IMG/VR virus record: IMGVR_UViG_3300028581_000012
Strand: one strand, 5' to 3'
Length of the DNA stretch: 64,000 nucleotides
DNA from: a virus
The notes beneath the pieces were generated by a model. That model was not told the DNA's origin and did not search any database. It saw only the letters and a program-made list of their open reading frames with translations. Positions 17-37,326 of the stretch are shown here, one piece after another (position 1 is the stretch's first letter; each line of letters opens with the position of its first letter). A program made the position numbers and the translations under genes.

Positions 17-502
17 TTAAAGTGAATAAAAATAAAAATCTTTTGTATCGTCTGTTCTATGTAGGTCATATCCGTACTTTTTATACAAGTTTTGAGCCGG
101 ATGGTTTTCTCTGTGTGTAATTAGTGTGACGTAATCTAAACCACAATCTTTGGCCGTGTTATGTGCAGTATCAAGAAGTGTTTTAGAGTGTCCCTGACCT
201 CTATAGTTATCCATTACAAACAAGTCATAAAGATAAGAAGAATTATTGTCATTAAAAAAATCTTTATCACAATTTTTAACACACCATTCATCTTTGTTAT
301 TGAGTCTTGGAATGTCATAATCTAAATCATGTCCATTAGACATGGATATTAAATGAATATATCCAATAAGGTCACCATCAGGGGTTCTAAGTTCAATTCT
401 TTTTCCAAATTGGTCGTTTATTTCGCCAAAAAAGGATATATCATTTTGAACCTGTTCATACATCAGGTTTTTGATTCTTTTGACTTGTTCGTTAAGTTTC
501 AT
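17..502 (-). CDS. GNAT-family acetyltransferase with N-terminal leader
   Basis: Motif A 'LFVMDNYRGQGHSKTLL' and motif B 'ENHPAQNLYKKYGY'. Confidence 0.85.
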   Translation of the reverse strand: MKLNEQVKRIKNLMYEQVQNDISFFGEINDQFGKRIELRTPDGDLIGYIHLISMSNGHDLDYDIPRLNNKDEWCVKNCDKDFFNDNNSSYLYDLFVMDNYRGQGHSKTLLDTAHNTAKDCGLDYVTLITHRENHPAQNLYKKYGYDLHRTDDTKDFYFYSL

Positions 503-542
503 AATAATAAATATATTGTTATGAAAATAATTTATAAATTAG

Positions 543-615
543 TAGTCCCGTCAGGATTCGAACCTGAATCAAAGAGGTAGAAGCTCCTTATGTTAATCCA
601 TTACACTACGGGACC
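543..615 (-). tRNA. tRNA-Arg (anticodon UCU), CCA not encoded
   Basis: Cloverleaf: acceptor GGTCCCG/CGGGACT, anticodon arm AGGAG-CTTCTAC-CTCTT, T-arm TCAGG-TTCGAAT-CCTGA. Confidence 0.95.
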
Positions 616-622
616 ATATTAT

Positions 623-799
623 TTAAACCTTTTTAACTTCGTATCTGTGACCTGAATCTGAGTTGGTGTTGAAGATGTTGGTCATCTCTTGTGCCTTGTC
701 TTTGTTGTCGAATTCCCAAACCTCACCTTGTGTATCTAACATAATTACAGGAAAAACTTTATCCTCATGTGTTTTAACGTGTTTAATTATTACATACAT
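623..799 (-). CDS. small hypothetical protein (58 aa, MYVIIKHVK...), not in ORF track
   Basis: Translated by hand; TATATTTG promoter element just upstream (804-811). Confidence 0.7.
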   Translation of the reverse strand: MYVIIKHVKTHEDKVFPVIMLDTQGEVWEFDNKDKAQEMTNIFNTNSDSGHRYEVKKV

Positions 800-939
800 A
801 GAACAAATATATGAAACTTATATAAAAAAACAAACCCCCCAATTAAAAAAAGGAGGGTTCAATTAAATATTATAAATTTTTATAATCCTGTCTTATATTT
901 TTGGGTTGACCCACTATAATTTATTTTAACTTTTTCATA

Positions 940-1239
940 TTACATCCCAATAATTAATCCATCCAAATCAATTCCACCCATTCCTTTCTTTCTGTCTTCC
1001 ATTTCATCATACATAAATGATTTAACTACAGATATAATGGATTGTTCAGATTGTGCAATTTTTGTTTCCATCCAATCTTCCAACTGTTCACCTTCTTCCA
1101 TCATTTCCCACATTTTGTGAGCCAAAGTTGCAATTGTGAAAAGTTGTTGTTTTGCCATATAAGAACCTCCATCATGATTTTCATGAAGAGATTGTTTGAT
1201 TTTTTCTAATTGAGATTCTGTGATTATAATTTTAGACAT
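940..1239 (-). CDS. hypothetical protein with IIITESQL leader (putative head protein)
   Basis: ORF track; leader motif shared with other genes in window. Confidence 0.7.
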   Translation of the reverse strand: MSKIIITESQLEKIKQSLHENHDGGSYMAKQQLFTIATLAHKMWEMMEEGEQLEDWMETKIAQSEQSIISVVKSFMYDEMEDRKKGMGGIDLDGLIIGM

Positions 1240-1240
1240 A

Positions 1241-1729
1241 TTAATAAGATTTTACAATTTCAATGAATCCTTCGTTTATTCCTTTCATTTGTTCAATAGC
1301 TTGTAAATAAGCATACATGGCGTTTTCTAAATTATCGAGTCTATCGGCAATATCTTGTCCTCTTCTTTTTTTATTTAACTTATTAACTCTATTTTGAAGT
1401 TTTTCTTTATTTGCCTCATCATATAATAAAGCTAAATCATTTTCTAAATCAACTAATTGTTTTTGCATATTTTTTGCTCTATTTCTAACTCTAGCATATG
1501 CAGCTTCTAAAGCCGGACTCATCATTTCACCGCCATAAAAAATTGCACCAATGTTTTGACCAAATGTTTTAAATCTACTAAAAAAACCAACAGTGTTTGC
1601 TTTTAATCTATCCCACATACCTTCATTAATAGTTGTTTGTTCAAAACGATTAAAACTTTCTTGAATAAATCTTTTTTCAACAAGTTTATTTGATTCTTGC
1701 ATTTTTCTAATTTTAGTGTAACTTTTCAT
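1241..1729 (-). CDS. hypothetical coiled-coil protein (putative internal head protein)
   Basis: ORF track; 'INEGMWDRLK' motif. Confidence 0.65.
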   Translation of the reverse strand: MKSYTKIRKMQESNKLVEKRFIQESFNRFEQTTINEGMWDRLKANTVGFFSRFKTFGQNIGAIFYGGEMMSPALEAAYARVRNRAKNMQKQLVDLENDLALLYDEANKEKLQNRVNKLNKKRRGQDIADRLDNLENAMYAYLQAIEQMKGINEGFIEIVKSY

Positions 1730-1750
1730 TTTTACATTTTTTTATTTTTA

Positions 1751-2545: not shown

Positions 2546-2974
2546 TTATTCAATTATCCATTTAATTTTTGATACAGTAAGGTCTTCATAAACATTCATA
2601 TATTTCAATTCATTATGAATGTAAGTGGTAATTGCATCCCTATATCTTCGGTTCATTCTTTTGACTCCATTAATAAAATCTTGTCTGATATACCAACCGG
2701 AATGTTCGTATTCTTCCATATACTGGCTATTTTTGACATCAATTTCAACATCAACTTCATAAACAAATTCTCTTTGATGCCAAGCGTAACCATTTTGGTA
2801 TTTTCTAATTGAAGTAATTTTTATGGTTGAATTTATTAAAACTCCCCATGAATCAATATACCTATAAGGATGAGGATAACCATTAGTTTTTATTTCTAAG
2901 GTTTTAACATATTTTTTTATAAACTTGATGTCTTTATCTTTAAGTGCGTATCCTGTTTTATATTTGTTTTCCAT
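2546..2974 (-). CDS. hypothetical protein
   Basis: ORF track; TATATTTG element at 2979-2986. Confidence 0.65.
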   Translation of the reverse strand: MENKYKTGYALKDKDIKFIKKYVKTLEIKTNGYPHPYRYIDSWGVLINSTIKITSIRKYQNGYAWHQREFVYEVDVEIDVKNSQYMEEYEHSGWYIRQDFINGVKRMNRRYRDAITTYIHNELKYMNVYEDLTVSKIKWIIE

Positions 2975-3005
2975 ACAACAAATATACTAAAAAAAATTAA
3001 TTGCA

Positions 3006-3036
3006 CAAAAAAATGGATAAGAAAAAACTTATCCAT
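3006..3036 (-). terminator. intrinsic terminator downstream of large ncRNA
   Basis: ATGGATAAG/CTTATCCAT 9-bp stem followed by T-run on minus strand. Confidence 0.75.
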
Positions 3037-3064
3037 CAAATTTTTTACCGGTGGCTCCATTAAA

Positions 3065-3895
3065 AAAAACGTTGAGATTACACGTTTGTTGTGAGAACCT
3101 TTAGAGTCATTATTGTTTCTACTCCTATCCACTTTCTTTTGGAAAGTATTTCTCAGTGACGGTCTTTTAGGTTTACCACTCCTTGAGGTTTGAATTACTC
3201 TCATCTTACTTGACTCTTTTTGAGGATGCCTCCCCAATTCGTCCTTGCGGGACTAAAGGTTTTTTGGATAATTACACGTCAGCTTGGGGCCTTCGTGTGC
3301 AATGAACGGCTCATTACTATGTAGTCACCTTTCATCCAAACCTGACGGACACTTTTCCTTAATTTATTTTTAATTGTTATTAATCATAATAATAAGTTTT
3401 TGTGTTGTGGATTGTCGAAGTAGTGGTCCGCCACCCGAGATGACCTATCTTTTGAACAAGTCAATACTCAACTACTCCGTGAGATATCCCTACCTCCATA
3501 TTTCAAGACTACTTCGTGATAGACCTCTTGGTAGAGGTTAATCAAGGTTAATAACGACACCACTCGTACTTTAACATACCTTTCGGTTTTAAGTATCCTT
3601 TAATATTGGAAAACGCAATAATGAAATTGGATAACTTCATGTTTTGCAAATATTCCTACGGGTTATTCCTATTGGTGTTCCCACCTCAAACAGACGACCC
3701 ACATCGCCTAATCACCTAACCACTTTCCCTACAGCGTTGCCCTCGGTACTAAAGGTTAAACGGTATCCCGCTTGTGTACTCGACCTCGATTGTCCAAAGA
3801 CAACCAAGACGCAAACCATCTAACACAAATGATTCACTTTATCCCACTTTCGTGGTTTATTTTAATGGACCATACACGGCCCATTGAACTCTTCG
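3065..3895 (-). ncRNA. large (~830 nt) structured ncRNA, GOLLD-like
   Basis: No credible ORF and raised GC; GNRA hairpins (CCAC-GAAA-GTGG 3844-3855, ACC-GAAA-GGT 3578-3587, CC-GCAA-GG 3241-3253); long-range 9-bp pairing 3416-3424/3508-3516; AGTAG motifs; AT-rich central linker; boxA upstream and terminator downstream. Ends approximate. Confidence 0.65.
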
Positions 3896-3966
3896 TTTCA
3901 TAAACTTTAAAGAAAAGGGGGTTAATCTTTTATTTCAAATTTTATATGAACAATTTGTTCGTTAGA

Positions 3967-3978
3967 ATTTCAAAGAAC
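3967..3978 (-). promoter_or_regulatory. boxA-like antitermination element (GTTCTTTGAAAT)
   Basis: Resembles rrn-leader boxA; lies between promoter and large ncRNA. Confidence 0.5.
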
Positions 3979-4172
3979 GAATTAATGATATAACTATTGC
4001 GGTAATATGTTACACTTACACTTTAAATGTGAAGGACTTCTGCTTTGTTTCATACAGTTAAATGTTTGTCCCGTAGTCACTTTCCTCACATACAACAGTA
4101 GCCCTACGGACCTAGACTGTTTTAATCATCAATATTTCAATTTTTTATTTCGGACGTTTCCGATTTGTTTTA

Positions 4173-4203
4173 CAAATTTAAGACATTTATTTCAATCTGT
4201 CAA
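4173..4203 (-). promoter_or_regulatory. strong promoter TTGACA-N17-TAAATTTG (Bacteroidota-type -7)
   Basis: Minus strand TTGACAgattgaaataaatgtctTAAATTTGtaaaacaa. Confidence 0.7.
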
Positions 4204-4220
4204 GTAATTTGTGAACTTTT

Positions 4221-4364
4221 TTAAACATTTTCTACAAAAACTTTTATAGTTCCATAGAATTTAGCTCTTACACTTGCAAAGACTTCATTTGAAGTATAAA
4301 GTTTTCTTCCTTTATCATCAAAGTAAAAAAAAATCTCTGTAGTGATGATTAAATCTTCACTCAT
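4221..4364 (-). CDS. small hypothetical protein (47 aa, MSEDLIITTEIFFYFDDKG...), not in ORF track
   Basis: Translated by hand; lies downstream of promoter at 4413-4443. Confidence 0.6.
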   Translation of the reverse strand: MSEDLIITTEIFFYFDDKGRKLYTSNEVFASVRAKFYGTIKVFVENV

Positions 4365-4412
4365 AATTTTAATTTTTCAAATTATACAAAGGGTCGTTTC
4401 CCAATTGTTTTA

Positions 4413-4443
4413 CAAATTTAAAACTAATATTCTGATTTGTCAA
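4413..4443 (-). promoter_or_regulatory. second copy of TTGACA-N17-TAAATTTG promoter
   Basis: Minus strand TTGACAaatcagaatattagtttTAAATTTGtaaaacaa; near-duplicate of 4173-4203 including downstream GGAAACG. Confidence 0.7.
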
Positions 4444-4548
4444 ACAAAACAATAAAAATTTTTTGATTTTTTTGTAATAAATATAAATATATTATACTTC
4501 ATCAAAAGTTTTATTGTTTTTAAATTTTTTTTCAAATATTTATATAAT

Positions 4549-4905
4549 GTGAAAATTTTAGTTAACGATAACGTTTTTAATTGTAAAGTTGCGGCAAACT
4601 CCGAGTCCATTCAAAAAGGTATGATGGGTAAAAAGTTTGATAGTAATTTTGATGGTATGTTGTTTATGATGCCAGATAAAAAAAATCAAACGTTTTGGAT
4701 GTACGATTGTTTAATTCCTTTAGATATTATTATGATTGATGGAAATGTAATAACAAAAATTAATCATAACTGCCCTCCTTGTAATGACCAAAAAAATTGT
4801 GAAATGTTTGAGGGATTTGGAAATATTGTTTTAGAATTGGATGGGGGTATTTGTAAAGAATTGGGAATAAAAGAAGGTGATAGAATTAAAACTTCCTTAT
4901 TTTAA
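4549..4905 (+). CDS. DUF192 family protein
   Basis: 'KGMMG..DGMLF..FWM..CLIPLDIIMID..VLELDGG..GIKEGD' pattern. Confidence 0.85.
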   Translation: MKILVNDNVFNCKVAANSESIQKGMMGKKFDSNFDGMLFMMPDKKNQTFWMYDCLIPLDIIMIDGNVITKINHNCPPCNDQKNCEMFEGFGNIVLELDGGICKELGIKEGDRIKTSLF

Positions 4906-5036
4906 TTTTTATCAATTTTTCTTTGTAGAATATCAATAAATTTATTTCTCATATCAATTACTAAATCATTTATATTTCTAATACCAGATTCTGAAATAAG
5001 AAAATTTAGTTGATTTTCTGTGATGATGATTTTCAT
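4902..5036 (-). CDS. 44-aa protein consisting mainly of IIITENQL leader (possibly a remnant)
   Basis: Translated by hand: MKIIITENQLNFLISESGIRNIN... Confidence 0.55.
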   Translation of the reverse strand: MKIIITENQLNFLISESGIRNINDLVIDMRNKFIDILQRKIDKN

Positions 5037-5117
5037 ATTAATGAATACCTTGTAAAAATAGAACTTAGTCTTTGTTTTATGTTATGTAATATATTTATCT
5101 AATAAATTGAATAATTT

Positions 5118-5723
5118 ATGAAACTTTTACTCGAAAAAGAATTGTATCTCATAAAAAAAATGATGGGTATAATATTAGAAGAAGAAGACCCAAAAACAGA
5201 AGAAGAGTGCGATAAAAAAAGAGATACCGGTACTAATTGTTATTGGGCTTACAAAAAAAATAAATGTATAACTTGCCCTGAAGGTCAACGTTTGAGTTAT
5301 CCATCGGAAGAATGTAGTTCATGTGACCCTGATGATGAGGTATTTGTACCAGGATTTGGTTGTGAAAAAATTTGTGATGATGACGAATATTTTAATAAGG
5401 ACAGTGGTGAATGTGAAAAAATACCACCAGGTAAATTTTATGATGGTAACCAATTACGTGATATTGACGAAGATATTTTAAAATTTTGGGATTTAGAAAA
5501 TGAAAAAAGAGAAAAGGAAGGTAAATCAATATTAAATCCTTACGAAAAACCTGAAAGCGAAGAAGACAGGGAGGATTGGGATGAGATTTTTAAAATGGCA
5601 AACTTTTTTGTGAATGAAGACAGGATTAACGGTAAAGAAGAGAAAATATCAATCAGAAAATGGAACAAACAGACGGAGAACTGTTTGAACAATAACACTC
5701 GCCCACCAGAGTTTCCATTATAG
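5118..5723 (+). CDS. cysteine-rich repeat protein with N-terminal leader
   Basis: C..C(P/D)xxx repeats: CITCPEGQ, CSSCDPDDE, CEKICDDDE, CEKIPPGKF. Confidence 0.65.
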   Translation: MKLLLEKELYLIKKMMGIILEEEDPKTEEECDKKRDTGTNCYWAYKKNKCITCPEGQRLSYPSEECSSCDPDDEVFVPGFGCEKICDDDEYFNKDSGECEKIPPGKFYDGNQLRDIDEDILKFWDLENEKREKEGKSILNPYEKPESEEDREDWDEIFKMANFFVNEDRINGKEEKISIRKWNKQTENCLNNNTRPPEFPL

Positions 5724-7064: not shown

Positions 7065-7184
7065 GTGATATATATTTTACTGTGTTTCCTAAACTAAATC
7101 CTAATTCCCAAGCATCAATTACTTTGATTGCTTCATATGTATTTTCTTCCCTCCGTAGTGTTCAGGGTGATTAACTTGTTCCAT
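6949..7184 (-). pseudogene. DUF3310-like protein interrupted by 1-nt frameshift
   Basis: MEQVNHPEHYG then, in -1 frame, EENTYEAIKVIDAWELGFSLGNTVKYISRAGKK..EDLRKALWYL; shift at ~7150. Confidence 0.7.
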
Positions 7185-8305
7185 TATTCCTCTTCTCTAT
7201 ATTCTTTTAATAATTCATCAGCCGGTCTTGTTCCGTATTTACCATCAATATTTTTAATATCAACTTTAGAATTCATTTTCATTGTTATTTCCATAAGTTC
7301 TTCAGCAGTATTTAAAGATTTTAAAACTTGATTAACAACTCTATAAGAATCGGCATTTGATGCTGGTCTTCTATCTTCTAAATAACCTCTCCAATTTTCA
7401 GCAGTTGTTTTAGGAATTCTAATTGATGAGCCTCTATCCCCAACACCGTATGAAAACTTATCAATATTTTGTGTTTCGTGTTTACCGGTTAATCTCATAT
7501 TATTATTTGAACCATATTCTTTTATATGGTCTTCGTGTCTTGAACCAAACGTATTAAAAATAGATTGGAAGTATTCGTACCCACCTAAACTTCTCATTCT
7601 TTCATTTGAAAAGTTTGTATGCATTCCTGAACCATTCCAATCACCAGTAATTGGTTTTGGATGTAATACAATTTCATAGTTAAAGTTTTCAGACAATCTG
7701 TACAAGAAATATCTACTCATCCATAAATCGTCCGCAGCATTTAAACTACCTTTTGAAAATATTTGATACTCCCATTGTCCAAGAGCAACTTCCGCATTTA
7801 TACCGGTAATTTCCATACCATATAACATACATAAACGCATATGTTCTTCGGCAAAACTACGACCAACAACATTGTGACCAACACCACAATAGTATTTACC
7901 TTGAGGGTCTAATCTAAAACCAGTATCGTGTCCTAAAAATTCATTTGTTTTTTGGTTTTTAATAAAGTATTCTTGTTCAAATCCAAACCAAACATCACTT
8001 TGGTCTTCTATTTTTGACCTCATATTTGATTCGTGTGGTGTCCCGTCAGGATTTACAACTTCACATAAAACATAAACTCTACTATTTTCCAAAGGAAAAC
8101 TTTTTTGTGAGTAATATTTCACAGGTTTAAGAATCCTATCTGAGTTTTCAGTGTCAGCTTGCATTGTAGATGACCCATCAAACCCCCATTCAGGAAATTT
8201 AAACTCAATGGAGTTTAAATCCATTTCTTCAACTTTAACTTTACTTCTGAGGTTAGGTTCAGGTAAATAACCATCCAACCACACATATTCTAATGTAACT
8301 TTCAT
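7184..8305 (-). CDS. glnII: glutamine synthetase type II (auxiliary metabolic gene)
   Basis: EYVWLDG, WGFDGSST, FGFEQEY, NAEVALGQWEYQ, HPKP..GDWNGSGMHTNFS, RLTGKHET, YLEDRRPASN. Confidence 0.93.
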   Translation of the reverse strand: MKVTLEYVWLDGYLPEPNLRSKVKVEEMDLNSIEFKFPEWGFDGSSTMQADTENSDRILKPVKYYSQKSFPLENSRVYVLCEVVNPDGTPHESNMRSKIEDQSDVWFGFEQEYFIKNQKTNEFLGHDTGFRLDPQGKYYCGVGHNVVGRSFAEEHMRLCMLYGMEITGINAEVALGQWEYQIFSKGSLNAADDLWMSRYFLYRLSENFNYEIVLHPKPITGDWNGSGMHTNFSNERMRSLGGYEYFQSIFNTFGSRHEDHIKEYGSNNNMRLTGKHETQNIDKFSYGVGDRGSSIRIPKTTAENWRGYLEDRRPASNADSYRVVNQVLKSLNTAEELMEITMKMNSKVDIKNIDGKYGTRPADELLKEYREEE

Positions 8306-9409: not shown

Positions 9410-10609
9410 TTAGTCGTATCTAATAATAATAAAATCAAGTCCATTTACATTTAATTCGTCGTGGTCACCATCATAACTTCCAAATATATTACCCCAACTA
9501 TCATGGTTAATTATAAAATTAATAACATCTCCTTGGTCGACATAATCCAAAATATCACTCTTATCAAGACCAGTTTCTTTAAAATAAGATAAAAATTCAT
9601 CTTCATTATTATCTACCCACATTTCAATAGCCTCTTCAATTTCATTTTCGTCAAAATCACCTTTTGGATTTTCTTTGATGTCTTCAATAAGTTCTTCTAA
9701 ATCAGATATTTCTTCTTCCAAACTGTTTTCAGTCTCTTCATCCAAATCTTCGTTATCAATTCTGTATTGTAGTTTAGACATTTTTTCTTCATAGATTCTA
9801 ATATAATTTTCTTGTTCTTTTGTAAGTTTTTCTTCTAATCCAAAATCTTCAGGACTATCATACATAGGTCCTTCTATATACCATCGTAACCAGTCTCTAA
9901 CCCTTTCTGAATCAAGGTGGTCTTCCCATACCCAATTTGCAAATGCATCATAACCTAATTCATCAATTCTAGATTCAATAGCTTCTCGAGCATTTTGTTC
10001 AATTGTTCTTGAATCAAAAACTATGTATTCATTTTCCATACCTTCTTCTCCTAACCACGTAAATGATTTACCACCATAATGGTTATAATTGTTAGGATAT
10101 AAGTTATATTTGTCTTCCAAAACTATTTCACCGTCTTCTTCAATTTCTTGGGGGTAGTTATTATTTTCTAAGTATTCATATAAAGCTTCTGTTTGGTAAG
10201 ATATTAATTTTTTATTATTTATATTCCAAGCGTCTTCTTTTCTTAATTGGTCTAAATAATTGAGTCTTTTTTGTAGTTCTTTTTGTTTTCTAATAATTTC
10301 TCTTCTACTTCCATAGTCTATAATACTTTTAGCTTTATCTTTGTCAAAAACGTCAACGTTAGAATATGATATATCTAAATCACCATTTATCTTTGATATT
10401 AAATTAAGATTTTGAATGTCTTTATTGTTATTAAGATTCAAATTTCCGTCAATTATAATTTTTTTGTTTCTATATTGAGGTAATCTAAGAATATTTGCAA
10501 CATCATCATTCACATACTTCAATAGTTCTAAAAATTCGCTAGGTGAAATAATTACTTCATCTTGCTCGTTTTCTAAAATTATATTTCTGATAATATTTTT
10601 ATATGACAT
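9410..10609 (-). CDS. acidic hypothetical protein with leader and GNLNL/GDLDI short repeats
   Basis: ORF track; TATTTAT upstream. Confidence 0.75.
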   Translation of the reverse strand: MSYKNIIRNIILENEQDEVIISPSEFLELLKYVNDDVANILRLPQYRNKKIIIDGNLNLNNNKDIQNLNLISKINGDLDISYSNVDVFDKDKAKSIIDYGSRREIIRKQKELQKRLNYLDQLRKEDAWNINNKKLISYQTEALYEYLENNNYPQEIEEDGEIVLEDKYNLYPNNYNHYGGKSFTWLGEEGMENEYIVFDSRTIEQNAREAIESRIDELGYDAFANWVWEDHLDSERVRDWLRWYIEGPMYDSPEDFGLEEKLTKEQENYIRIYEEKMSKLQYRIDNEDLDEETENSLEEEISDLEELIEDIKENPKGDFDENEIEEAIEMWVDNNEDEFLSYFKETGLDKSDILDYVDQGDVINFIINHDSWGNIFGSYDGDHDELNVNGLDFIIIRYD

Positions 10610-10713
10610 ATTTTATAAATATTACAAAAAAAAGAATTGATTAATTCAAAAAATGATTTAAAGTTTTAAACAAAGATATTTATAATAAAATAAACTAATT
10701 AAAAATTATAACC

Positions 10714-10860
10714 ATGGCAGGATGCGGATGTAAAAACAATCAACAACAAACACAAACTCAAACACAAACTCAACAAACTCAAACACAAGCACAACAAACA
10801 ACACAAACTGTTAAAAGTGCCGTAACAAAAATTGTTGAAAAGTATTACAACAAAAAGTAA
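10714..10860 (+). CDS. 48-aa MAGCGCK / Gln-Thr-rich peptide, not in ORF track
   Basis: Translated by hand; TATTTAT at 10677-10683. Confidence 0.65.
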   Translation: MAGCGCKNNQQQTQTQTQTQQTQTQAQQTTQTVKSAVTKIVEKYYNKK

Positions 10861-12414: not shown

Positions 12415-14130
12415 TTAAGGAAGTAAATCTTCAAAAAAATTGTTGCCTTCTAATTGTAAATATTGTTCATCTAAAATTTGATGTTGCCAAGTACTAAATT
12501 CTTCTGTTTCATTTTCCCATCTTGGCATTAAAGCAACTATTCTTGTCCCTAAATGTTCAGAACTTTTGAATGTAGAAACTTGTTCAACAACTTTTCCGTT
12601 TCTATACTTTTTAACCATTTTAGGTAGTTTTAAAGTACCTAACTTATAAAGTAGGTTGATATTTGCCAATTGAATGTTTGCAACTTCTGAAAATTCTAAT
12701 GATGGTTGGTAGTTGTATTTAGCTCTTTCTTGAACATTCAATACTTCATCACTCCTGAATATATACTCAACAGTAATTCTGTCGTCCCCATCTTTAGAAT
12801 CTTTTCTAATTGAAAAAATTATGCTGTCAGCCCTTTCAACATATGTTCTTACACAATTTTTTTGATGTTGTGATTCTTTTTCGTAATCCCAAGAAGTTTT
12901 CAATAAAACTGGATAATAGGTTTCACCTTTATGTTCTATTGGTTTTTCTAAATCATCTATATTTCCGTAAAATCTTTCAATTTCCCCCGTTCTATAAGAC
13001 TGAATTAATCTACTCCATTCTTCATGTTCTACATTGAATTCGTGAATTGAGTTGAATTTCATTTTTACATTTTCTCCAAGTTTTGTTAATTTCCTTTTGA
13101 AATTAATATGCTCACATAATGTTGAATACAAATAATTGTCCATATTTTCACACAACAGAACAATCCTATCTTTTTCTTTATCCGTTAGTTCTAGACCTTC
13201 AAACAAATAATTGTCCTGATGTGGTTGTGTTAGATGATACCAATCAGATGGTGACTCTTCCTCGTTTAATTTTATTTCGTTATTTGTTTTGAAAATTTTT
13301 TCATTTAGTTTGTTAAATCTATCAATACCCAAAAGGTGGTAAAGGCATATCATTTTTTCAAAATTTAAAAGTTTAATCTCATTCAGCATTTTTTTAGCTT
13401 TATTTCCTTTAATTTTTAATGCCCCCATAAATGTGTCTACAAGGTTCATATTGTTTTTTCTTAAATCTTTAAGAGAAACAAAAGTACCTGAAAACTTAAT
13501 CCATTCATTTGGTAACTTCACTCCCTGTATAAGGTATTTTGTTAAACTATAAAATGAATAAACGTTATTTGTTTTGAAGTTTTGAGGATTTTTTAGTTCT
13601 AACTTTTCCCAAATTTTTCCTAAAAAAAAGTATATGTAACTTTGTGAGTCAACTGTTTCGTGAATTTTTAACGCATATGTTATATTAAAAATATTATTAC
13701 AAGTCGGATTTACTTTCATTGAGGTTCCGATTTTCTTTTTGTTTTTACCATTAAAGGTTCCAAGATAAAACATTTTTGTTTTAAAATTGAATGACAAAAA
13801 GTTAGTCTGTTTTCTAACAACAAAATATCTATTTGATAAAATCCTATAACGTGTATAAACTTGAGACTTTAAGGAAATTGAATCTTCACTTTCTTCAACA
13901 AATATTCTTCTTCTCTGAAAGGATAAGTCAGCCATTAAATTACCATAGTTTTTTTCATAATCTACCTCATCAAAAGATTGGTAATCATCAAAATATTTTA
14001 ATTCTTTTTTTGTGACATAATTATCAACTTTTTCTACGGGTTCTACAGGACAATAGTTTTTGAAAACTCTTGTATTATATGATTTAATTTCAAGAAATTT
14101 ATGAAATGTTTTACCTTCTACTTTTAGCAT
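12415..14130 (-). CDS. PcfJ-like domain protein
   Basis: C-terminal 'EKESQHQKNCVRTY..IFSIR..RITVEY..Q.RAKYN'; start moved to MLKVEG after TACATTTG (14136-14143). Confidence 0.75.
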   Translation of the reverse strand: MLKVEGKTFHKFLEIKSYNTRVFKNYCPVEPVEKVDNYVTKKELKYFDDYQSFDEVDYEKNYGNLMADLSFQRRRIFVEESEDSISLKSQVYTRYRILSNRYFVVRKQTNFLSFNFKTKMFYLGTFNGKNKKKIGTSMKVNPTCNNIFNITYALKIHETVDSQSYIYFFLGKIWEKLELKNPQNFKTNNVYSFYSLTKYLIQGVKLPNEWIKFSGTFVSLKDLRKNNMNLVDTFMGALKIKGNKAKKMLNEIKLLNFEKMICLYHLLGIDRFNKLNEKIFKTNNEIKLNEEESPSDWYHLTQPHQDNYLFEGLELTDKEKDRIVLLCENMDNYLYSTLCEHINFKRKLTKLGENVKMKFNSIHEFNVEHEEWSRLIQSYRTGEIERFYGNIDDLEKPIEHKGETYYPVLLKTSWDYEKESQHQKNCVRTYVERADSIIFSIRKDSKDGDDRITVEYIFRSDEVLNVQERAKYNYQPSLEFSEVANIQLANINLLYKLGTLKLPKMVKKYRNGKVVEQVSTFKSSEHLGTRIVALMPRWENETEEFSTWQHQILDEQYLQLEGNNFFEDLLP

Positions 14131-14167
14131 AATTACAAATGTATATATAATTTTAAAATAAAAAAAA

Positions 14168-14455
14168 TTAGTTAAGTGATATTTTACCCATATGGTGGTC
14201 CATAAATGTACCCACAATTTTGTCTAACTTTTTGACGGTTGCGTTTTTTTGAACTTCAAGAATAATTTCTATCATTTGTTTTCTTGTTGGTGCTAACTCC
14301 TTTTCATCCTTTTCATTTGTTTCAACAATTTTTCTTATTTTCTGAAAGAAAATATTGCTGTCATTGTCACCAATAAGTATTTTTAATTGTTCGGGATTTT
14401 TGTCAAAAAACTTGACAAGATTTGTCATATAAATTTCAATATCAACATTACTCAT
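14168..14455 (-). CDS. hypothetical protein
   Basis: ORF track; TAACTTTG element at 14460-14467. Confidence 0.7.
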   Translation of the reverse strand: MSNVDIEIYMTNLVKFFDKNPEQLKILIGDNDSNIFFQKIRKIVETNEKDEKELAPTRKQMIEIILEVQKNATVKKLDKIVGTFMDHHMGKISLN

Positions 14456-22084: not shown

Positions 22085-22116
22085 ATTAATAAATATTAGG
22101 TATGAAGAAAAAAACC

Positions 22117-23711: not shown

Positions 23712-24245
23712 TTACTCCTCTTCTGTAAATTTAGTTTTCTTTCTTGTTGAAATAATTTTAGCCCATTTGCTTTTAAACTTTTCAAAAAATGATTTTAATT
23801 TATTTGTCAATTCAACTAGTTGTTCGTCAAGTTGTATCATATCTCCATTTATATAAACACCGTTGTTTTCTCCAATTGAATAGAAAAACTCAATGTCGGC
23901 ATCTACAATTTTACCACTCCACTGAACAGAGTTACTATATACATTTAAAACTCCAAAGTCAGAAAGGTCTGAAACTTCATTAACAAACTCTTCCATAGTT
24001 TCTTGGTACGACTGTTTTTCATCACTTGTCAATTCCAAATCTTTTTTGTCTTTTCCGTGAAGAGTTAAAAGTCCACCTGAAATTCTGTAAGTTTTACTTT
24101 TATCTTTTTTGACTTTATCAACATCAATTTCTTGGTCTTGTTCAATATTGTCTTCAATACTTTTTGCCAAATTAACAGGCCCTGTTTGTTCTTGCAAAAG
24201 TCTAGACTTTTTCAACAACATTTTTATTTCATCATATTGGTTCAT
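23712..24245 (-). CDS. hypothetical protein with leader
   Basis: ORF track. Confidence 0.7.
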   Translation of the reverse strand: MNQYDEIKMLLKKSRLLQEQTGPVNLAKSIEDNIEQDQEIDVDKVKKDKSKTYRISGGLLTLHGKDKKDLELTSDEKQSYQETMEEFVNEVSDLSDFGVLNVYSNSVQWSGKIVDADIEFFYSIGENNGVYINGDMIQLDEQLVELTNKLKSFFEKFKSKWAKIISTRKKTKFTEEE

Positions 24246-26186: not shown

Positions 26187-26723
26187 TTAGATATGTATCA
26201 CAATATAATTATCAATACTTTTTTGTTCAACTCTCACTCTTTCTGCATTATCTTCTTGTCTTTTAGTTTTCAAAAATTGACCATCTTTAGAAAAGGCTGA
26301 AGTGATGATATTAAAAAAATTACCATCTTTATGTAATAAAACTTCAATATAATCAAAGTTTTCTTCATCTTCATTGTTTTTTCTTTTGTGAACAAAAATG
26401 ATTTTGTTATTTTTTGGTTGTTCGTTCTCAAATGCTCCATATATTTTGTCAACATTATCACTGAAAAAATTTTTAATCATTGTATCAGGAACCGCAAATC
26501 TTGGTGGTTGTCTAAACTTCGATTTATTGGTATATAAAAAATCGTTGTATTTATCAACTATGTCTTTATATGTTTCATTTCCATGTCTTTCATTTCTTTG
26601 ATGATAAGTCGATTTCAACTGTATAAGCCTATCGTTTGAAATTGTAGAAAATATTGTAGTACCTCTAGGTTTATTATTTTCCTCGTTTAAAATAATATTC
26701 TTTAATGTAAGTAATAGTTTCAT
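26187..26723 (-). CDS. hypothetical protein with leader; possible BECR/RelE-like RNase fold
   Basis: 'STYHQRNERH' and terminal 'IITSAF' strand; start moved to MKLLL after TATTTAT. Confidence 0.55.
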   Translation of the reverse strand: MKLLLTLKNIILNEENNKPRGTTIFSTISNDRLIQLKSTYHQRNERHGNETYKDIVDKYNDFLYTNKSKFRQPPRFAVPDTMIKNFFSDNVDKIYGAFENEQPKNNKIIFVHKRKNNEDEENFDYIEVLLHKDGNFFNIITSAFSKDGQFLKTKRQEDNAERVRVEQKSIDNYIVIHI

Positions 26724-26736
26724 ACTATATAAATAC

Positions 26737-26924: not shown

Positions 26925-27740
26925 TCATAAATATTCAAATAAATCTGAACATTCATTTCTAAGTTTACGAAGAGCTTTTTCTTTGATTTGTCTAACTCTT
27001 TCTTTTGTTAGATTAAAATCCGAGCCAATATCTTCCAAAGTTCTTGGTGTTCCTGAAATACCGTAATAATCTTCAACAATTACCTTTTCTCTTGAATCCA
27101 AAACTGACATTATTTCATTCATTTTTTGTTTCAAGGTATCTTGTGTTGAAAATACTTCATCAGGTAATGACGCTCCATCATTTTTAATTACATCAATCAA
27201 AGTATCACCATCTTCGTTAATATGCATGTCCAAATCAACAATCTTTGGAAGGGATGCAAATTTAGCAGATAATTCACCATTTGTTTTTTCCAATTCTTTT
27301 TTCTCTTTGTGCATATCCTGAACAACATTGACCGGGAGTCTAATTGTTCTTGAGTTATCATTTAAAGATTGTAGAATTGATTGTTTAATCCACCAAACCG
27401 CATATGAAATGAAACGGTTATTTTTGGTCCAATCAAAATTCTTGATTGCCTTTAATAGCCCATAATTACCTTCAGCAATCAAATCAGATAAATCAATTCC
27501 TTGATTTTGATATTGTTTTGCAACGGTAATAACAAAACGTAAATTACCTTCCAAAAGTTCTTTATAGATAAGTTCTTTTTCTCTTTCTGTACAATCCCCA
27601 TCTGTAATTTTTTTTGAAAGTATCTTTTCCCTTTCAGGTGTCATTACTTTTAATTTTCGGATGTCTTTTAAGTACAGTTGAATTTCGTCTTGGTTAATTG
27701 GGTTTGTTGATTTAATTTCCTCGGTCTTCTCTTTTTCCAT
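26925..27740 (-). CDS. RNA polymerase sigma-70 family factor (RpoD/RpoS-like)
   Basis: 'NLRFVITVAKQY', 'DLIAEGNYGL', 'RFISYAVWWI', 'RTIRLP', 'TKERVRQIKEKAL'. Confidence 0.95.
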   Translation of the reverse strand: MEKEKTEEIKSTNPINQDEIQLYLKDIRKLKVMTPEREKILSKKITDGDCTEREKELIYKELLEGNLRFVITVAKQYQNQGIDLSDLIAEGNYGLLKAIKNFDWTKNNRFISYAVWWIKQSILQSLNDNSRTIRLPVNVVQDMHKEKKELEKTNGELSAKFASLPKIVDLDMHINEDGDTLIDVIKNDGASLPDEVFSTQDTLKQKMNEIMSVLDSREKVIVEDYYGISGTPRTLEDIGSDFNLTKERVRQIKEKALRKLRNECSDLFEYL

Positions 27741-34454: not shown

Positions 34455-34559
34455 TTGATTATATAATTAACGTTTATTTTAAATTTTATTAAATGGTCCC
34501 AACTTGTTGTTGTGTACCATAGTGGTGTAATATTTTTTTCCATACTAAAAGATAATTTA

Positions 34560-35426
34560 TTAATTTATTTTTGTCAAATACTTTGTCATATCCATTTTTA
34601 AAATAATATCAACAACTTCTTTTGGAATGCGGTATTCTTTAAACTCAGTATCTTCTTTTAAATGCACAATTACCCCTCCAAGTAATGGTGTATTTTCATA
34701 TTTACTACCTTCTAACATTTTCAAAAGTAATTTACCATAAAAAGGTAATTGTGTGTTGTAATGTCCAAGAGCATTATTTGGAAGGTTTTCAAATGGTTTT
34801 TTCATAGGTTTTGTAAAATTATTAATCTCCATATTTTTTTCCTTATTTGTTTTCCAATCTGTAATCACAAACCCAAAACCGGTTTTTTGTTTATTAAACA
34901 TAATCCAAACCTTATCAGGTTGACCGGTATAACCAAGTTCGGGATGACCTAAAACAATTTCCGTATCAAGTAATACAGCACCTCTTTCTTCCATAAGTGA
35001 TAAAAACTTTTTACCACCCTTAATCATTTTATCCCCTTTCATAACAAGTTCCAAATCACATTCAAAAAGTGGTTGTCTAACTTCCTTATCAATTTTGAAT
35101 CTGTTTATTGTTTCCAATTCCAACTCATAGTGAACTCTACTTCCCATATTAGTTGATATTAAACCACTTTGTTTCCATTCTTCTAAATAGGTATGAGTCA
35201 AATATGGGTCACCTTTTGCCATTCTTCTTGCAACTTCCTCTGATGGAAATTCATCATAAAACAATTTCATAACTTTTGATACAGATGGAAAGTCGTCTCT
35301 TACTTCACCATTAATATCCAACATAGTATATCTATGTTTATCTTCTTCAAAAGTTAATTGAAACTCACTTTGTTTTTGAGTTATTATTTCTCTTATTTCT
35401 TTTGCTATTTTTTTTAAATCTATCAT
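34560..35426 (-). CDS. PD-(D/E)XK exonuclease (RecB/Cas4-like family)
   Basis: 'GSRVH', 'TGQPD', 'TDWKT', 'QLPFY'. Confidence 0.85.
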   Translation of the reverse strand: MIDLKKIAKEIREIITQKQSEFQLTFEEDKHRYTMLDINGEVRDDFPSVSKVMKLFYDEFPSEEVARRMAKGDPYLTHTYLEEWKQSGLISTNMGSRVHYELELETINRFKIDKEVRQPLFECDLELVMKGDKMIKGGKKFLSLMEERGAVLLDTEIVLGHPELGYTGQPDKVWIMFNKQKTGFGFVITDWKTNKEKNMEINNFTKPMKKPFENLPNNALGHYNTQLPFYGKLLLKMLEGSKYENTPLLGGVIVHLKEDTEFKEYRIPKEVVDIILKMDMTKYLTKIN

Positions 35427-36340
35427 TTGAATTCTACGTAATATTTTTCAATGTCACCTCTAAGGTCACATACATCTTTATCTTTTGGTAGTTTTACTAA
35501 CTTTACTCTATTGTAAAGTGCACCACCATTTAATTTATCATATAAGTTTTTTGCGTCAGTGTAAGCATCACCATCCAAACAAACTATTATATTCTTTTTT
35601 GCTTTGGTATATAATTTTTCCCAAAGATTGTCATTTAAAAACTTTCCTAATAAACAAATAGAATTATCTAAAAAGAAACTATCAAACACCCCCTCAACCA
35701 AGTATATGTCTTTTTTCCAATCAATTAAACTTTCATTAAAAATTAGAAAATCCTTTGATGCTTCGGGGTTTTTGTATTTTAATTTACTTCGTGGGTTCCA
35801 AGACCTTGATACAAAAAAGTTGAGTTCTCCTTTTTTATCAAACGAGGGGACTACTATTCTTCCTGCATATTCACCTTCCAAACAGAAACCAATTTGATAT
35901 TTTTCAATTATATAATCGGAAATTCCCCGTTTATGTAGGTAATTTATGGCTTCTTTTCTTGGAATATGGAGTGGGTGGACCTCATCAAACTTTTTGTATT
36001 CTTTTGGTAGTTCAAGTTTTTTATAAACCTTTTCTTTTTTTTCAAACTCATCGGGTCTGATTAACTTATAGATTTTTTTATCTTTTTTTGAACCAAACTT
36101 ATCAATAAGTTTTCCTAAATGTCCGTGAGTACCGTGTGTTTCAGAACAACCCCAGCATTTATAAACGTGTTGTTGATAATTGATTTCAAGATTACCTTTT
36201 CCATCTGTCTTATCCATTCCTTTTATCTCGTGTGAACATACAGGACAATCTACCGAAATTTGTCCTCTAATTTCATTTACCATCTTTGGTTCTCCAAAAA
36301 TGTTTGTTATAAGGTCTATGATTAATTCTTCAGCTTCCAC
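35423..36340 (-). CDS. DNA primase (DnaG-type)
   Basis: Zn finger CPVC..CWGC; TOPRIM 'LVEGVFD', 'CLDGDA', 'KDVCD'. Confidence 0.88.
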   Translation of the reverse strand: MEAEELIIDLITNIFGEPKMVNEIRGQISVDCPVCSHEIKGMDKTDGKGNLEINYQQHVYKCWGCSETHGTHGHLGKLIDKFGSKKDKKIYKLIRPDEFEKKEKVYKKLELPKEYKKFDEVHPLHIPRKEAINYLHKRGISDYIIEKYQIGFCLEGEYAGRIVVPSFDKKGELNFFVSRSWNPRSKLKYKNPEASKDFLIFNESLIDWKKDIYLVEGVFDSFFLDNSICLLGKFLNDNLWEKLYTKAKKNIIVCLDGDAYTDAKNLYDKLNGGALYNRVKLVKLPKDKDVCDLRGDIEKYYVEFK

Positions 36341-36379
36341 CCTTTAAAGATAAGAATTATAGGGTAAATGTCAATTAAC

Positions 36380-36407
36380 AAAAAAACCCACCTTTGAGGG
36401 GTGGGTT
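36380..36407 (-). terminator. intrinsic terminator
   Basis: AACCCACC/GGTGGGTT stem with U-tract on minus strand. Confidence 0.7.
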
Positions 36408-36425
36408 ACTCTAATTTTATTTTAT

Positions 36426-36899
36426 TTACCTATTTCCATCAAAAAAAATCAATTCTTGTCTACAAAATAATTGATAATTTTTTTTCTTACCGTCAGTTTT
36501 AACCATTATTCTTTGTTCATAATCAACCCTACCATTCACGTCCATATTTTCTGTTGCAGTTCCCCCTTTTACTAATTTTTGTGTCGCCGTAAAACCAAAA
36601 GTTTGACCTGGTTGTACTACAAAAGGTAATTGTTTGTCAGGTCTAATTCTCATATTATCGTTCATAGGTTGAATATCGTATATTGTGATAGGTAATGACC
36701 CAGCATTTTTAACTCCTGTAAACTTAAAATCAATTGTGTCTCCAAATTCAACAAGAGTTTTACGTGGATTTATAACTTGCAATTGTCCCGTTAATGGTCC
36801 CGCATTTCCTCCCATCATTCCAGGATTAGATTGTTCTAAAACAATTCTTCTAACAATTCTTGTTAAATCTGATTCTGTTAATCTTACTATTCTTTTCAT
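36426..36899 (-). CDS. leader-bearing protein with Ig-like (DUF1573/ASPM-like) beta domain
   Basis: MKRIVRLTESDL leader; 'KNAGSLPITI..VVQPGQT..VKTD'. Confidence 0.65.
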   Translation of the reverse strand: MKRIVRLTESDLTRIVRRIVLEQSNPGMMGGNAGPLTGQLQVINPRKTLVEFGDTIDFKFTGVKNAGSLPITIYDIQPMNDNMRIRPDKQLPFVVQPGQTFGFTATQKLVKGGTATENMDVNGRVDYEQRIMVKTDGKKKNYQLFCRQELIFFDGNR

Positions 36900-37326
36900 A
36901 CTAAAATATTTTTAATAATTCATTCCCCCTCTATCAGGTCGAATTTTATCTGCAATATATTGAAAGTTTTTAATAAATAAAGTAGCTAAAGTTGCAAAAG
37001 TAACAAGACCACCAACAGCAGCAATTTTGTCTGACTTTTTTGTTCTTCTTACTTCTCTTCTGATTTTTCTTCCCGTTCTTCTAAACCATTGAACTAATTT
37101 TTTTAACCATTTTGGTTTTCTTCTTGATAACTCCATTATGTAGTTTTCAGCTTCTTCTTCTGTCATATCTGCAAATAAATTATCTACACATCTTTCCATT
37201 GCCATATCATTGTTTTCGTCACAATTTTCTATAGCAACTTCAGCTTGCATATTTGTATTTTCGTTAACAATTCTTCTAACAATTCTTGTTAAATCTGATT
37301 CTGTTAATCTTACTATTCTTTTCATA
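36840..37326. repeat. 61-bp identical direct repeat (36840-36900 and 37266-37326) encoding shared N-terminal leader
   Basis: Compared base by base. Confidence 0.9.
36912..37325 (-). CDS. leader-bearing protein with C-terminal TM helix
   Basis: MKRIVRLTESDL leader; 'IAAVGGLVTFATLATLFI'. Confidence 0.7.
   Translation of the reverse strand: MKRIVRLTESDLTRIVRRIVNENTNMQAEVAIENCDENNDMAMERCVDNLFADMTEEEAENYIMELSRRKPKWLKKLVQWFRRTGRKIRREVRRTKKSDKIAAVGGLVTFATLATLFIKNFQYIADKIRPDRGGMNY

Follow-up and report, generated by a model that had tools for sequence, protein, structure and literature searches.

Leader-bearing genes in the window

The window, a 64,000-nucleotide stretch of viral DNA (IMG/VR record IMGVR_UViG_3300028581_000012), comes from a large T4-related phage of a lake and encodes at least eleven otherwise unrelated proteins that carry the same short N-terminal tags, hereafter referred to as leaders. 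All eleven N-termini cited in the first-pass annotation were found at the gene ends given there. The leaders belong to three interchangeable subtypes (A, B and C), each closing in h-h-x-E (h, hydrophobic), and a further subtype, D, which contains RILEMH, occurs in relatives only. Subtype A has the 22-residue form MKRIVRLTESDL-x-RIVRRVI-x-E, together with short IIITESQL forms; subtype B reads NLQENI-x-RIK-x-MMG-h-h-x-E; subtype C comprises 12-16 residues with endings such as NIILE. The leader family of the first-pass annotation is real, with distinct subtypes in place of the single loose consensus envisaged there, and its extent exceeds that description. The eleven genes and three possible extra members are as follows.

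36912-37325, minus strand: subtype A cargo gene; canonical 22-residue leader at 37260-37325; profile score 55.6 bits; TATTTAT at 37352-37358
36426-36899, minus strand: subtype A cargo gene; leader at 36834-36899; 52.6 bits
940-1239, minus strand: short subtype A cargo gene (IIITESQL form, ending SLHE); leader at 1180-1239; 9.0 bits
4902-5036, minus strand: 44-residue remnant; short subtype A leader at 4989-5036, ending FLISE; 5.3 bits
1751-2122, minus strand: subtype C cargo gene (basic protein, phrog_7595); leader at 2081-2122, ending KVLFE; 12.3 bits; TATTTAT at 2127-2133
9410-10609, minus strand: subtype C cargo gene (399 residues, very acidic, pI 4.2); leader at 10571-10609, ending NIILE; TATTTAT at 10615-10621
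14495-15856, minus strand: subtype C cargo gene; leader at 15812-15856, ending DIILE; 2.0 bits; TATTTAT at 15873-15879
20360-22084, minus strand: subtype C cargo gene; leader at 22040-22084, ending KLISE; 4.3 bits; TATTTAT at 22089-22095
26187-26723, minus strand: subtype C cargo gene; leader at 26682-26723, ending IILNE; profile score near zero; TATTTAT at 26729-26735
17-502, minus strand: subtype B-like cargo gene; leader at 455-502, ending NLMYE; TATTTAT at 507-513
5118-5723, plus strand: subtype B cargo gene (acidic, ten Cys); leader at 5118-5180, IKKMMG then IILE; TATTTAT at 5092-5098
1241-1729, minus strand: possible extra member, weak; N-terminus ending RFIQE at residue 24, regex match only
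22117-22686, minus strand: possible extra member, weak; EILQE at residue 20, found by eye and by a looser h-h-x-E regex
23712-24245, minus strand: possible extra member, weak; RLLQE at residue 19, looser regex only

The product of 36912-37325 runs from an acidic through a basic to a hydrophobic C-terminal segment and has 44 homologues, several of which resemble it in the leader only. In 36426-36899, a Gly/Pro-rich linker separates the leader from an all-beta sandwich domain; in its AlphaFold model, residues 1-33 have pLDDT values of 31-44 and the eight-strand domain (36-151) values of up to 92, so that the leader is predicted to lie outside the cargo fold, and Foldseek matched the domain to generic PapD/Ig-like sandwiches only. 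The cargo of 17-502 is a GNAT acetyltransferase (Acetyltransf_1, 47.6 bits, residues 42-145) and that of 14495-15856 ends in a leucine-rich repeat (LRR_14 and LRR_8 matches, both under the Pfam cut-offs). The latter gene, whose leader is retained in the L061 orthologue, was assigned to the family by form and context because its profile score is only 2.0 bits. Membership of 26187-26723, judged from sequence alone, is weak; its orthologue in G003, a 291-kb near-complete phage with which the window is collinear (59 of 77 proteins match), has a similar leader ending IIIE. The leader of 5118-5723 matches the subtype B leaders of a G003 gene cluster at 172-176 kb, and a homologue search with its cargo found none. 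The atlas clusters of 9410-10609 are exclusively viral. Gene 940-1239, the leader of which is kept in five orthologues, forms a single run with 1241-1729 and 1751-2122; no orthologue of 1241-1729 was found. The G003 orthologue of 22117-22686 aligns only from residue 30, and that of 23712-24245 begins with a similar helix that lacks the Glu.

Two of the cited examples need qualification. Gene 4902-5036 does carry a leader, but is a remnant of a tagged gene of about 500 residues: its relatives (460-503 residues) carry on from the same ESGIR segment and all the long ones lead into a DHH-like phosphoesterase, those in L060 and L067 (499-503 residues) having the same leader at the start and that in G003 (125032-126414) a different start. 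Gene 20360-22084 has, besides its N-terminal leader, an internal A-like copy (residues 359-377, encoded at 20954-21010), which is conserved in position in the G003 orthologue; relatives of the gene's acidic repeat bear the canonical leader.

Enrichment of the leaders at N-termini

An (I/L)-x-E ending had been proposed as the mark of tagged proteins. The bare motif is not discriminating, being enriched only 1.5-fold at N-termini with 218 internal occurrences in the window, whereas longer patterns are clearly N-terminal. The regex [KR][KRNDG][ILVF][ILVMF].E, which was fitted to the window (all regexes were picked after inspection of the data), has eight matches within the first 25 residues of the 77 window proteins, compared with four over some 18,000 internal residues; in G003, an independent relative, it gives 24 N-terminal and 39 internal matches, a 5.4-fold difference in rate. 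The profile model of N-termini proposed in the first-pass annotation bears out the enrichment, as the long-leader profile reaches at least 4 bits in 6.4% of 455 N-termini, compared with 0.65% of internal windows and 0.62% of shuffled N-termini. None of the other Pfam-annotated enzymes of the window (methylases, DnaJ, sigma factor, glutamine synthetase, phosphoesterase and a PcfJ-like protein) bears a leader. The cargo shows no depletion of h-h-x-E: an apparent one (observed/expected 0.63) was not replicated in 113 non-redundant proteins (1.21).

Conservation, spread and exchange of leaders

The 22-residue subtype A leader is almost exclusively N-terminal. In 77 IMG/VR loci, 138 of the 139 matches to the leader regex begin 2-4 residues after a Met, and these loci hold 98 distinct leader-bearing proteins with unrelated downstream parts. 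In metagenomes, 8,320 protein clusters begin with the leader (cluster representatives at 50% identity, matched by the leader profile at E<=1e-3), and a search of 185,579 prokaryote species genomes gave no copy. Among the best 150 metagenome proteins, all single-copy matches start at or near the annotated N-terminus and about 12 proteins carry two or three copies, some of them internal; copies also occur near the C-terminal end of some proteins, and multi-copy genes are sometimes polyprotein-like. Some of the cargo has hydrophobic, membrane-like segments.

Selection on the leader acts at the peptide level, with a conserved peptide, variable codons and a sharp boundary after Glu22. Over 86 distinct leader contexts Met1, Leu7, Thr8, Glu9 and Glu22 are invariant, and Leu7, Ser10, Leu12, Arg14 and Arg18 are each encoded by 3-5 synonymous codons; identity is 100% at residue 22 but only 38% at residue 23, and about 15% beyond.

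The subtypes are equivalent on orthologous cargo, being exchanged at the same join point in three genes. Orthologues of 36426-36899 carry subtype A, C or D leaders; those of 1751-2122 (84-96% identity) have three leader forms, one of them A-like; and close orthologues of 9410-10609 have subtype C leaders and distant ones in G003 and L033 A-like leaders on the same cargo. The GNAT gene 17-502 bears a leader in all five orthologues, which range from the B-like form of the window to a clear B form (RMK-x-MM...IFE). The proposal of a modular leader ahead of unrelated domains is upheld.

The upstream TATTTAT motif

TATTTAT lies within 60 nt upstream of eight of the eleven genes, in agreement with the earlier remark that most follow this motif. 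The other three do not: 940-1239 and 36426-36899 each lie immediately downstream of a gene that is tagged or has the motif, and the region upstream of 4902-5036 has no sense-strand TATTTAT. The motif precedes 67 of the 86 canonical leader contexts. In G003, it stands before 13 of the 22 genes with a positive profile score, compared with 73 of the remaining 356 (odds ratio 5.6, p=1.6e-4). It is common to tagged genes and head and tail genes, since it also precedes the terminase, protease, scaffold, capsid and tail genes of G003. With only 4-6 or 13-15 nt between it and the ATG, TATTTAT may act as a signal for translation instead of as a late promoter.

Head genes and putative cleavage sites

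The link of the leaders to a protease and a capsid protein is drawn from the head genes of relatives. A search for a gp21-type prohead protease, suggested by the first-pass annotation, was successful in every one of the four near-complete relatives in which the head module is retained (G003, G004, G005 and G014), each encoding a protease of the Peptidase_S77 family (80-88 bits) together with a capsid protein of the gp23 family (about 213 bits); G003 combines this T4-type head with about 45 tagged genes. Across 42 leader-bearing viral records, the gp23 family was found in 11 and the HK97 Phage_capsid family in none, and the leader is restricted to viruses with T4-type head genes.

The T4 record reads FLTE|AEIGG at the gp23 cut after Glu65, and the relatives' capsid proteins align FLINE|A or HLINE|A to this FLTE|A; their predicted maturation site ends like the leaders. 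The capsid gene is followed by a gene whose subtype C leader ends in h-h-x-E|AT, and the N-terminus of the relatives' protease, GIL-h-E, resembles LIE-9 of T4 gp21 (PMC9026906).

Probable function of the leaders

The leaders are probably (about 0.65) propeptides that target proteins to the capsid of a distant T4-superfamily jumbo phage and are then removed by its prohead protease, like those of the T4 internal proteins. All the computational checks suggested in the first-pass annotation turned out favourably: the S77 protease, the ending of the capsid site, the modularity, the shared motif and the lack of leaders on the other Pfam-annotated enzymes speak for this reading, which is supported in part. 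A tagged protein would be made alongside the head and tail proteins; its amphipathic N-terminal helix would dock on the scaffolding core while the prohead grows, so that the protein is enclosed; the gp21-family (S77) protease would cut after the Glu of the closing h-h-x-E, freeing the mature cargo inside the head, from which it could exit together with the DNA when the next cell is infected. The tags may also serve as recombination handles for the capture of new cargo. Our inference covers docking, cleavage, packaging and ejection, and any role of the cargo as effectors. Against this reading are the lack of similarity to the T4 tag beyond the h-h-x-E ending, the undepleted h-h-x-E of the cargo and the short distance of TATTTAT from the ATG. 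Internal or repeated copies, transmembrane cargo and a near-invariant 22-residue tag are not what a simple T4-like tag would predict.

These features agree with an unlikely alternative, in which the leader is an uncleaved docking or oligomerisation helix for another shared partner or destination, such as the tail or baseplate lumen, the cell membrane, a phage chaperone or neighbouring exported proteins. Hydrophobic residues at positions 4/5, 7, 12, 15/16 and 19/20 suggest a heptad-like, amphipathic basic helix, its conservation far exceeds that of the substitution-tolerant T4 tag (PMC9026906), and the tagged genes of G003 face signal-peptide genes. However, such a helix leaves unexplained the h-h-x-E with its invariant Glu in all four subtypes, the abrupt end of conservation at this Glu and the same ending at the capsid maturation site and protease N-terminus, and polyprotein processing fits the repeated copies equally well.

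That the short leaders outside the canonical 22-residue class are compositional by-products, i.e. Lys/Ile/Asn/Glu-rich N-terminal helices of an AT-rich genome separate from the system, is improbable. The low enrichment of the bare motif, the post hoc choice of regexes and the scores of 14495-15856, 26187-26723, 17-502 and 5118-5723 (at most 2 bits on the canonical profile) would agree with it, but the window regex holds in G003, the shuffled and internal controls are about tenfold lower, canonical and short leaders are exchanged on orthologous cargo and subtype B is an independent conserved family with a tandem cluster. It is highly improbable that the conserved block of 5' coding sequence works as an RNA or DNA element with an incidental peptide, be it a translation-initiation or regulatory signal of late messages (possibly connected with bS21) or a recombination cassette. 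The A-rich stretch before the ATG, the phasing of TATTTAT to the start codon and the presence in these phages of bS21, proposed to favour late phage messages (PMC9723584), are compatible with such an element, as are the 61 nt over the leader that are identical, synonymous sites included, between 36426-36899 and 36912-37325; this pair most plausibly reflects a recent duplication or conversion, synonymous sites vary freely over the 86 contexts around fixed residues, and subtypes of unrelated nucleotide sequence are exchanged on the same cargo.

Comparison with known systems

If the capsid-targeting reading is true, tagging occurs here as in T4, but on a far larger scale. In T4, the only part that the unrelated internal proteins have in common is an N-terminal tag of 10-19 residues, which gp21 removes at L/I-x-E and which suffices for loading foreign proteins (PMC9026906, PMC3012670, PMC12373910). 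As in T4 IpI, IpII, IpIII and Alt (the N-termini of IpII and IpIII were read directly from the T4 record), unrelated proteins here have a short tag alone in common, closing in hydrophobic-x-Glu, in phages whose head genes include a protease of the gp21 family and a capsid protein of the gp23 family, the latter with a predicted maturation site of the same form; the genes are likewise accessory, variable and probably expressed alongside the head genes, with which they here share an upstream motif. Unlike in T4, the main tag has 22 residues, without detectable similarity to the T4 tag MKTYQEFIAE beyond the h-h-x-E ending; there are at least four subtypes, an expanded set of about 45 tagged genes per genome (T4 has 3-4), and occasional repeated, internal tags. 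The probable hosts are freshwater Bacteroidota.

In the polymorphic T-even internal-protein loci, as the account of Repoila et al. (1994) is relayed in PMC3012670 and PMC12373910, a conserved leader is likewise the sole shared part of diverse, fast-turnover cargo genes; the T4 cargo comprises anti-restriction proteins, and in the T-evens about ten such genes are known, against 8,320 cluster representatives for one subtype here. In contrast to those loci, leader subtypes are here exchanged on the same cargo, which includes GNAT and LRR proteins and beta-sandwich domains. Encapsulin cargo-loading peptides, short terminal peptides that send unrelated cargo into an HK97-fold shell, offer an analogy only, as they are usually C-terminal, uncleaved, of cellular nanocompartments and unrelated in sequence to the leaders.

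The jumbo phages phiKZ, 201phi2-1 and SPN3US also pack many proteins in the head, and in phiKZ-like phages a diverged gp21-like protease cuts ejection and inner-body proteins after Glu (PMC9026906, PMC5694885). Unlike here, phiKZ-like cargo has no common near-invariant N-terminal tag, and the sites in phiKZ and 201phi2-1 are S/A-x-E, with a small residue two before the Glu, where the present leaders have Ile, Val or Leu, as in T4.

Leader subtypes and the genes carrying them

The N-terminal leaders of the window were examined individually and in the relatives of the phage. All eleven N-termini quoted in the first-pass annotation are present, although the single loose consensus under which they had been united does not describe them. 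The leaders are distinct subtypes with a common ending, h-h-x-E (h, hydrophobic), which closes every leader in the window:

36912-37325 and 36426-36899, subtype A, the canonical form of 22 residues, MKRIVRLTESDL-x-RIVRRVI-x-E
940-1239 and 4902-5036, short forms of subtype A, starting IIITESQL
5118-5723, subtype B, with RIK-x-MMG ahead of the ending
17-502, GNAT gene, a weaker form of subtype B
9410-10609, 14495-15856, 1751-2122, 20360-22084 and 26187-26723, subtype C, 12-16 residues, with endings such as NIILE, DIILE, KVLFE, KLISE and IILNE
Subtype D, with RILEMH, found in relatives

Glu22 of subtype A is invariant and positions 19-20 are Val or Ile in about 80% of the cases. The (I/L)-x-E site stressed in the first-pass annotation is enriched only 1.5-fold at N-termini; as the bare triplet is frequent elsewhere, this form of ending is necessary and not sufficient. 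In G003, a near-complete relative in IMG/VR, at least five genes with subtype B leaders stand in tandem at 172-176 kb. The GNAT is the sole leader-bearing protein among the Pfam-annotated enzymes of the window, and the following genes carry no leader:

7184-8305 (-), glutamine-synthetase-like protein
12415-14217 (-), PcfJ-like protein
17034-18005 (-), full DnaJ
26925-27740 (-), sigma-70 family factor (regions 1.2, 2 and 4)

The two canonical leaders of the window share the same 61 nt, synonymous sites included (36840-36900 and 37266-37326), in genes that are unrelated beyond them; this points to duplication or conversion in the recent past, in which the leader served as a putative recombination handle. 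The frame at 4902-5036 (-) has 44 residues, comprising the leader and the beginning of a protein that is 460-503 residues long in the relatives (loci L060 and L067; G003 125032-126414) and has a DHH-type phosphoesterase motif; judged by this comparison, the window copy is a decayed cargo gene.

Statistical support for the leader family

A regular expression drawn from the window gave 8 N-terminal matches as against 4 internal ones in about 18,000 residues, and was replicated in G003 at a 5.4-fold rate. Modelling of the N-termini, as the first-pass annotation had proposed, yielded an approximately tenfold enrichment: the subtype A profile scored at least 4 bits in 6.4% of 455 N-termini, compared with 0.65% of internal windows supplied with a Met and 0.62% of shuffled N-termini. 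Chance or composition is rejected as the source of the family on the internal-window and shuffle controls together with the replication in G003. Positives for any of the tags in G003 amount to 52 of 378 N-termini against a background of 1.9% of internal windows, from which each genome would have roughly 45 tagged genes and the window 11-14 of them. A profile search begun with the canonical leader and iterated converged at 108 matches, none of them a short subtype; the short subtypes were linked to it instead via orthologous cargo, the cargo being the part of the protein that follows the leader.

Conservation and modularity of the leader peptide

In 77 IMG/VR loci, 138 of the 139 matches to the regular expression lie 2-4 residues after a Met; 98 distinct proteins carry the leader in these loci, frequently as tandem arrays with up to nine genes. 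Identity falls from 100% to about 15% past residue 22, and conservation breaks off directly behind the invariant Glu22. Over 86 distinct contexts, fixed leader residues go with varying synonymous codons; because of this variation, an RNA or DNA element is rejected for the family as a whole. A Sec, Tat or lipoprotein signal peptide is likewise rejected: nine of the 22 leader residues are charged and the leader has no hydrophobic stretch, whereas such a signal needs a core of 10 or more hydrophobic residues. True signal peptides of the window, such as that of 22940-23356, differ in appearance from the leader. Genes with clear signal peptides stand head-to-head or tail-to-tail with canonical-leader genes in G003 (192694-193245, 241265-241816 and 165144-165620).

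Comparison of orthologues reveals that one cargo may carry different subtypes at an identical junction point. In close relatives the acidic protein 9410-10609 starts with a subtype C leader and in distant relatives with an A-like one. Leaders of subtypes A, C and D all occur on the beta-sandwich cargo of 36426-36899, and the leaders of the GNAT orthologues range from the B-like form of the window to a clear B form. These swaps link the short leaders with the canonical leader more firmly than does any score of a motif. AlphaFold models residues 1-33 of 36426-36899, which comprise the leader and linker, with low confidence and places them outside an eight-strand sandwich, for which Foldseek returned generic beta-sandwich matches only; an Atlas search with 9410-10609 gave viral clusters with no function attached.

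The leader profile, searched against 1.84 billion cluster representatives, matched 8,320 of them at E<=1e-3 (1,002 at 1e-10), and 185,579 prokaryote species genomes yielded no copy. Neither Pfam nor PHROGs holds a model for these leaders, and the peptide strings were in no paper of the literature searched. As far as sequence comparison can define it, the leader is a modular viral peptide.

The phage group and its head genes

The window has a G+C content of 30%, and nearly all of its genes are on the minus strand. Fifty-nine of its 77 proteins match, in order, the 61-128 kb region of G003 (290,887 bp, 99% complete in IMG/VR). Among the GenBank phages, a 12-kb DNA search found no near match to the window and a 25-residue leader search found nothing, so that no cultured leader-bearing relative is present there. 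G003 has a T4-type head module with terminase, portal, a gp21-family protease (Peptidase_S77; 257574-258290), a scaffold protein (258639-260396), a capsid protein of the gp23 family, and a bS21 gene on the opposite strand; this layout is that of the bS21 phages of freshwater Bacteroidetes (Chen et al., PMC9723584). Its capsid protein matched 1,475 T4-superfamily records of GenBank phages, every one below 60% identity, and the best matches (a Microcystis phage and Flavobacterium phage immuto) reach about 43% across part of the protein, a distant relationship within the T4 superfamily only. The window thus comes from a branch of jumbo phages in this superfamily that is distant and uncultured.

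A gp21-type prohead protease, which the first-pass annotation had suggested seeking elsewhere in the genome, is present in the near-complete relatives G003, G004, G005 and G014 and in 10 fragments. Both this protease and a gp23-family capsid protein occur in all four near-complete leader-bearing records that still hold the head module. The T4-type capsid family was detected in 11 of 42 leader-bearing records and the HK97 family in none of the 42; in the relatives, the match to the gp23 family (PF07068) scores 213 bits.

The T4 tag and the N-termini of gp23 and gp24 were taken from the T4 record for comparison. When the capsid proteins of G003, G004 and G005 are aligned with T4 gp23, its FLTE/A (the slash marks the cut) corresponds to FLINE/A or HLINE/A. 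By homology with gp23, the capsid protein of the relatives would be cut at -INE/A, and this -INE ending is that of the commonest subtype A leader. The N-terminus of the protease in the relatives, GIL-h-E, resembles the LIE-9 site of gp21. In addition, a conserved gene directly after the capsid gene (G003 262696-263652, +; the G005 counterpart lies in locus L097) has a subtype C leader ending h-h-x-E/AT, and the residues past this ending resemble the predicted mature N-terminus of the capsid protein. It may encode a vertex protein; its similarity to T4 gp24 is not significant (BLAST E=0.56).

The TATTTAT motif

The TATTTAT motif was analysed at 20 sites in the window and genome-wide in G003. 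In G003 it precedes the head and tail genes, and it also precedes 67 of the 86 canonical leader contexts; its association with profile-positive genes has an odds ratio of 5.6 (p=1.6e-4). Most leader genes had been said to follow this motif, which is borne out by 8 of the 11 named genes in the window, where it is otherwise found upstream of five tail-module genes and only five others. Its density in the 60 nt before genes is 7.6 times the genome-wide value, and the distance between its 3' end and the ATG has a bimodal distribution, with 30 of 104 genes at 4-6 nt and 30 at 13-15 nt. Being phased to the ATG, the motif may be a late promoter whose messages have no leader or a very short one, or else an element that works in the initiation of translation. 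The common use of the motif by head genes and tagged genes holds under either alternative. These phages encode bS21. A 48-residue Gln/Thr-rich protein with an M-x-GCGCK-like start (10714-10860, +) has TATTTAT upstream and is retained in G003 (118755-118907).

Probable function of the leaders

In T4, unrelated internal proteins share just a 10-19-residue N-terminal tag that binds the prohead core and is removed by gp21 at L/I-x-E, and the tag alone suffices to load foreign proteins (PMC9026906, PMC3012670, PMC12373910). Replacement of the Glu by Asp in T4 prevents processing and leaves targeting intact (PMC9026906). The proteins injected from the T4 head are a first-line counter-defence, all three internal proteins inhibiting type IV restriction enzymes (PMC12373910). 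The present family resembles this system in having a short N-terminal peptide common to otherwise unrelated proteins, in the closure of the leader in the gp21 site form L/I-x-E and, in the relatives, in a gp23-family capsid protein with a predicted maturation site of the same form as the leader ending. It departs from the T4 system in leader length, number of subtypes, scale, repeated copies and host group. T4 IpII and IpIII start MKTYQEFIAE, and no subtype is similar to this beyond the h-h-x-E end; the leaders would thus work like the T4 system without being homologues of the T4 tag. They differ from phiKZ-type processing sites, in which S/A lies two before the Glu, in having Ile, Val or Leu at this position. 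By analogy, the family is probably a functional equivalent of T4 capsid targeting. The packaging and delivery of effectors proposed in the first-pass annotation is supported in part, every sequence-level prediction being upheld, and we consider the leaders to be head-loading propeptides with a probability of roughly 0.65.

Some features sit awkwardly with a simple N-terminal tag. In certain proteins the leader occurs two or three times, in the order leader-cargo-leader-cargo, and 20360-22084 has an internal A-like leader at residues 359-377 (window 20954-21010, -) that is retained in its G003 orthologue. The proteins with such copies may be polyproteins that the protease cuts; the copies would also be explained if the leader were a docking helix for another partner, a reading favoured as well by membrane-like segments in some cargo and by a conservation of the leader far above what the T4 tag needs. 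Avoidance of h-h-x-E within the cargo gave no support: a first set had a ratio of 0.63 as against 1.12 in other proteins, with an undepleted Asp control, and this was not replicated in 113 non-redundant representatives (1.21).

A wider proposition, which we hold tentatively and at somewhat short of even odds, is that more than one-tenth of the genes in these freshwater jumbo phages constitute a head-delivered arsenal, addressed through a compact code of exchangeable N-terminal tags that a single T4-type prohead protease reads, that the genes with repeated tags encode polyproteins cut into several cargo inside the head, and that the tag serves as a recombination handle for the capture of cargo. 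If the tags are head-loading signals, a simple 22-residue profile flags thousands of candidate injected, probably anti-defence, proteins, which are otherwise hard to recognise, in abundant uncultured Bacteroidota phages of lakes, opening their host-takeover repertoire to systematic study. The T4 loading principle would then be ancient and expandable to dozens of cargo per genome, and a ready-made tag would be available for putting foreign proteins into such phages.

Other features of the window and related proteins

The metagenome proteins P0045, P0046, P0048, P0058, P0062, P0114 and P0127 have two or three leader copies between unrelated modules. The internal copy in 20360-22084 is preceded by two acidic repeats; in other phages such repeats follow a canonical N-terminal leader.

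Two RNA genes and three small proteins with a common module were also identified in the window:

542-615 (-), tRNA-Arg(TCT)
3069-3479 (-), GOLLD RNA (Rfam RF02032), matched full length with 313 bits and E 8e-89
43419-43718, 48282-48569 and 48573-48782 (-), small proteins opening with the Cys-containing module TSPYDVY-x-CD

The GOLLD match is surrounded by an ORF-poor stretch at about 2900-4500, which the gene probably fills, since GOLLD is a large RNA that the Rfam model covers only in part. The TSPYDVY-x-CD module was found again at G003 15430-15900, within the tail-fibre region.
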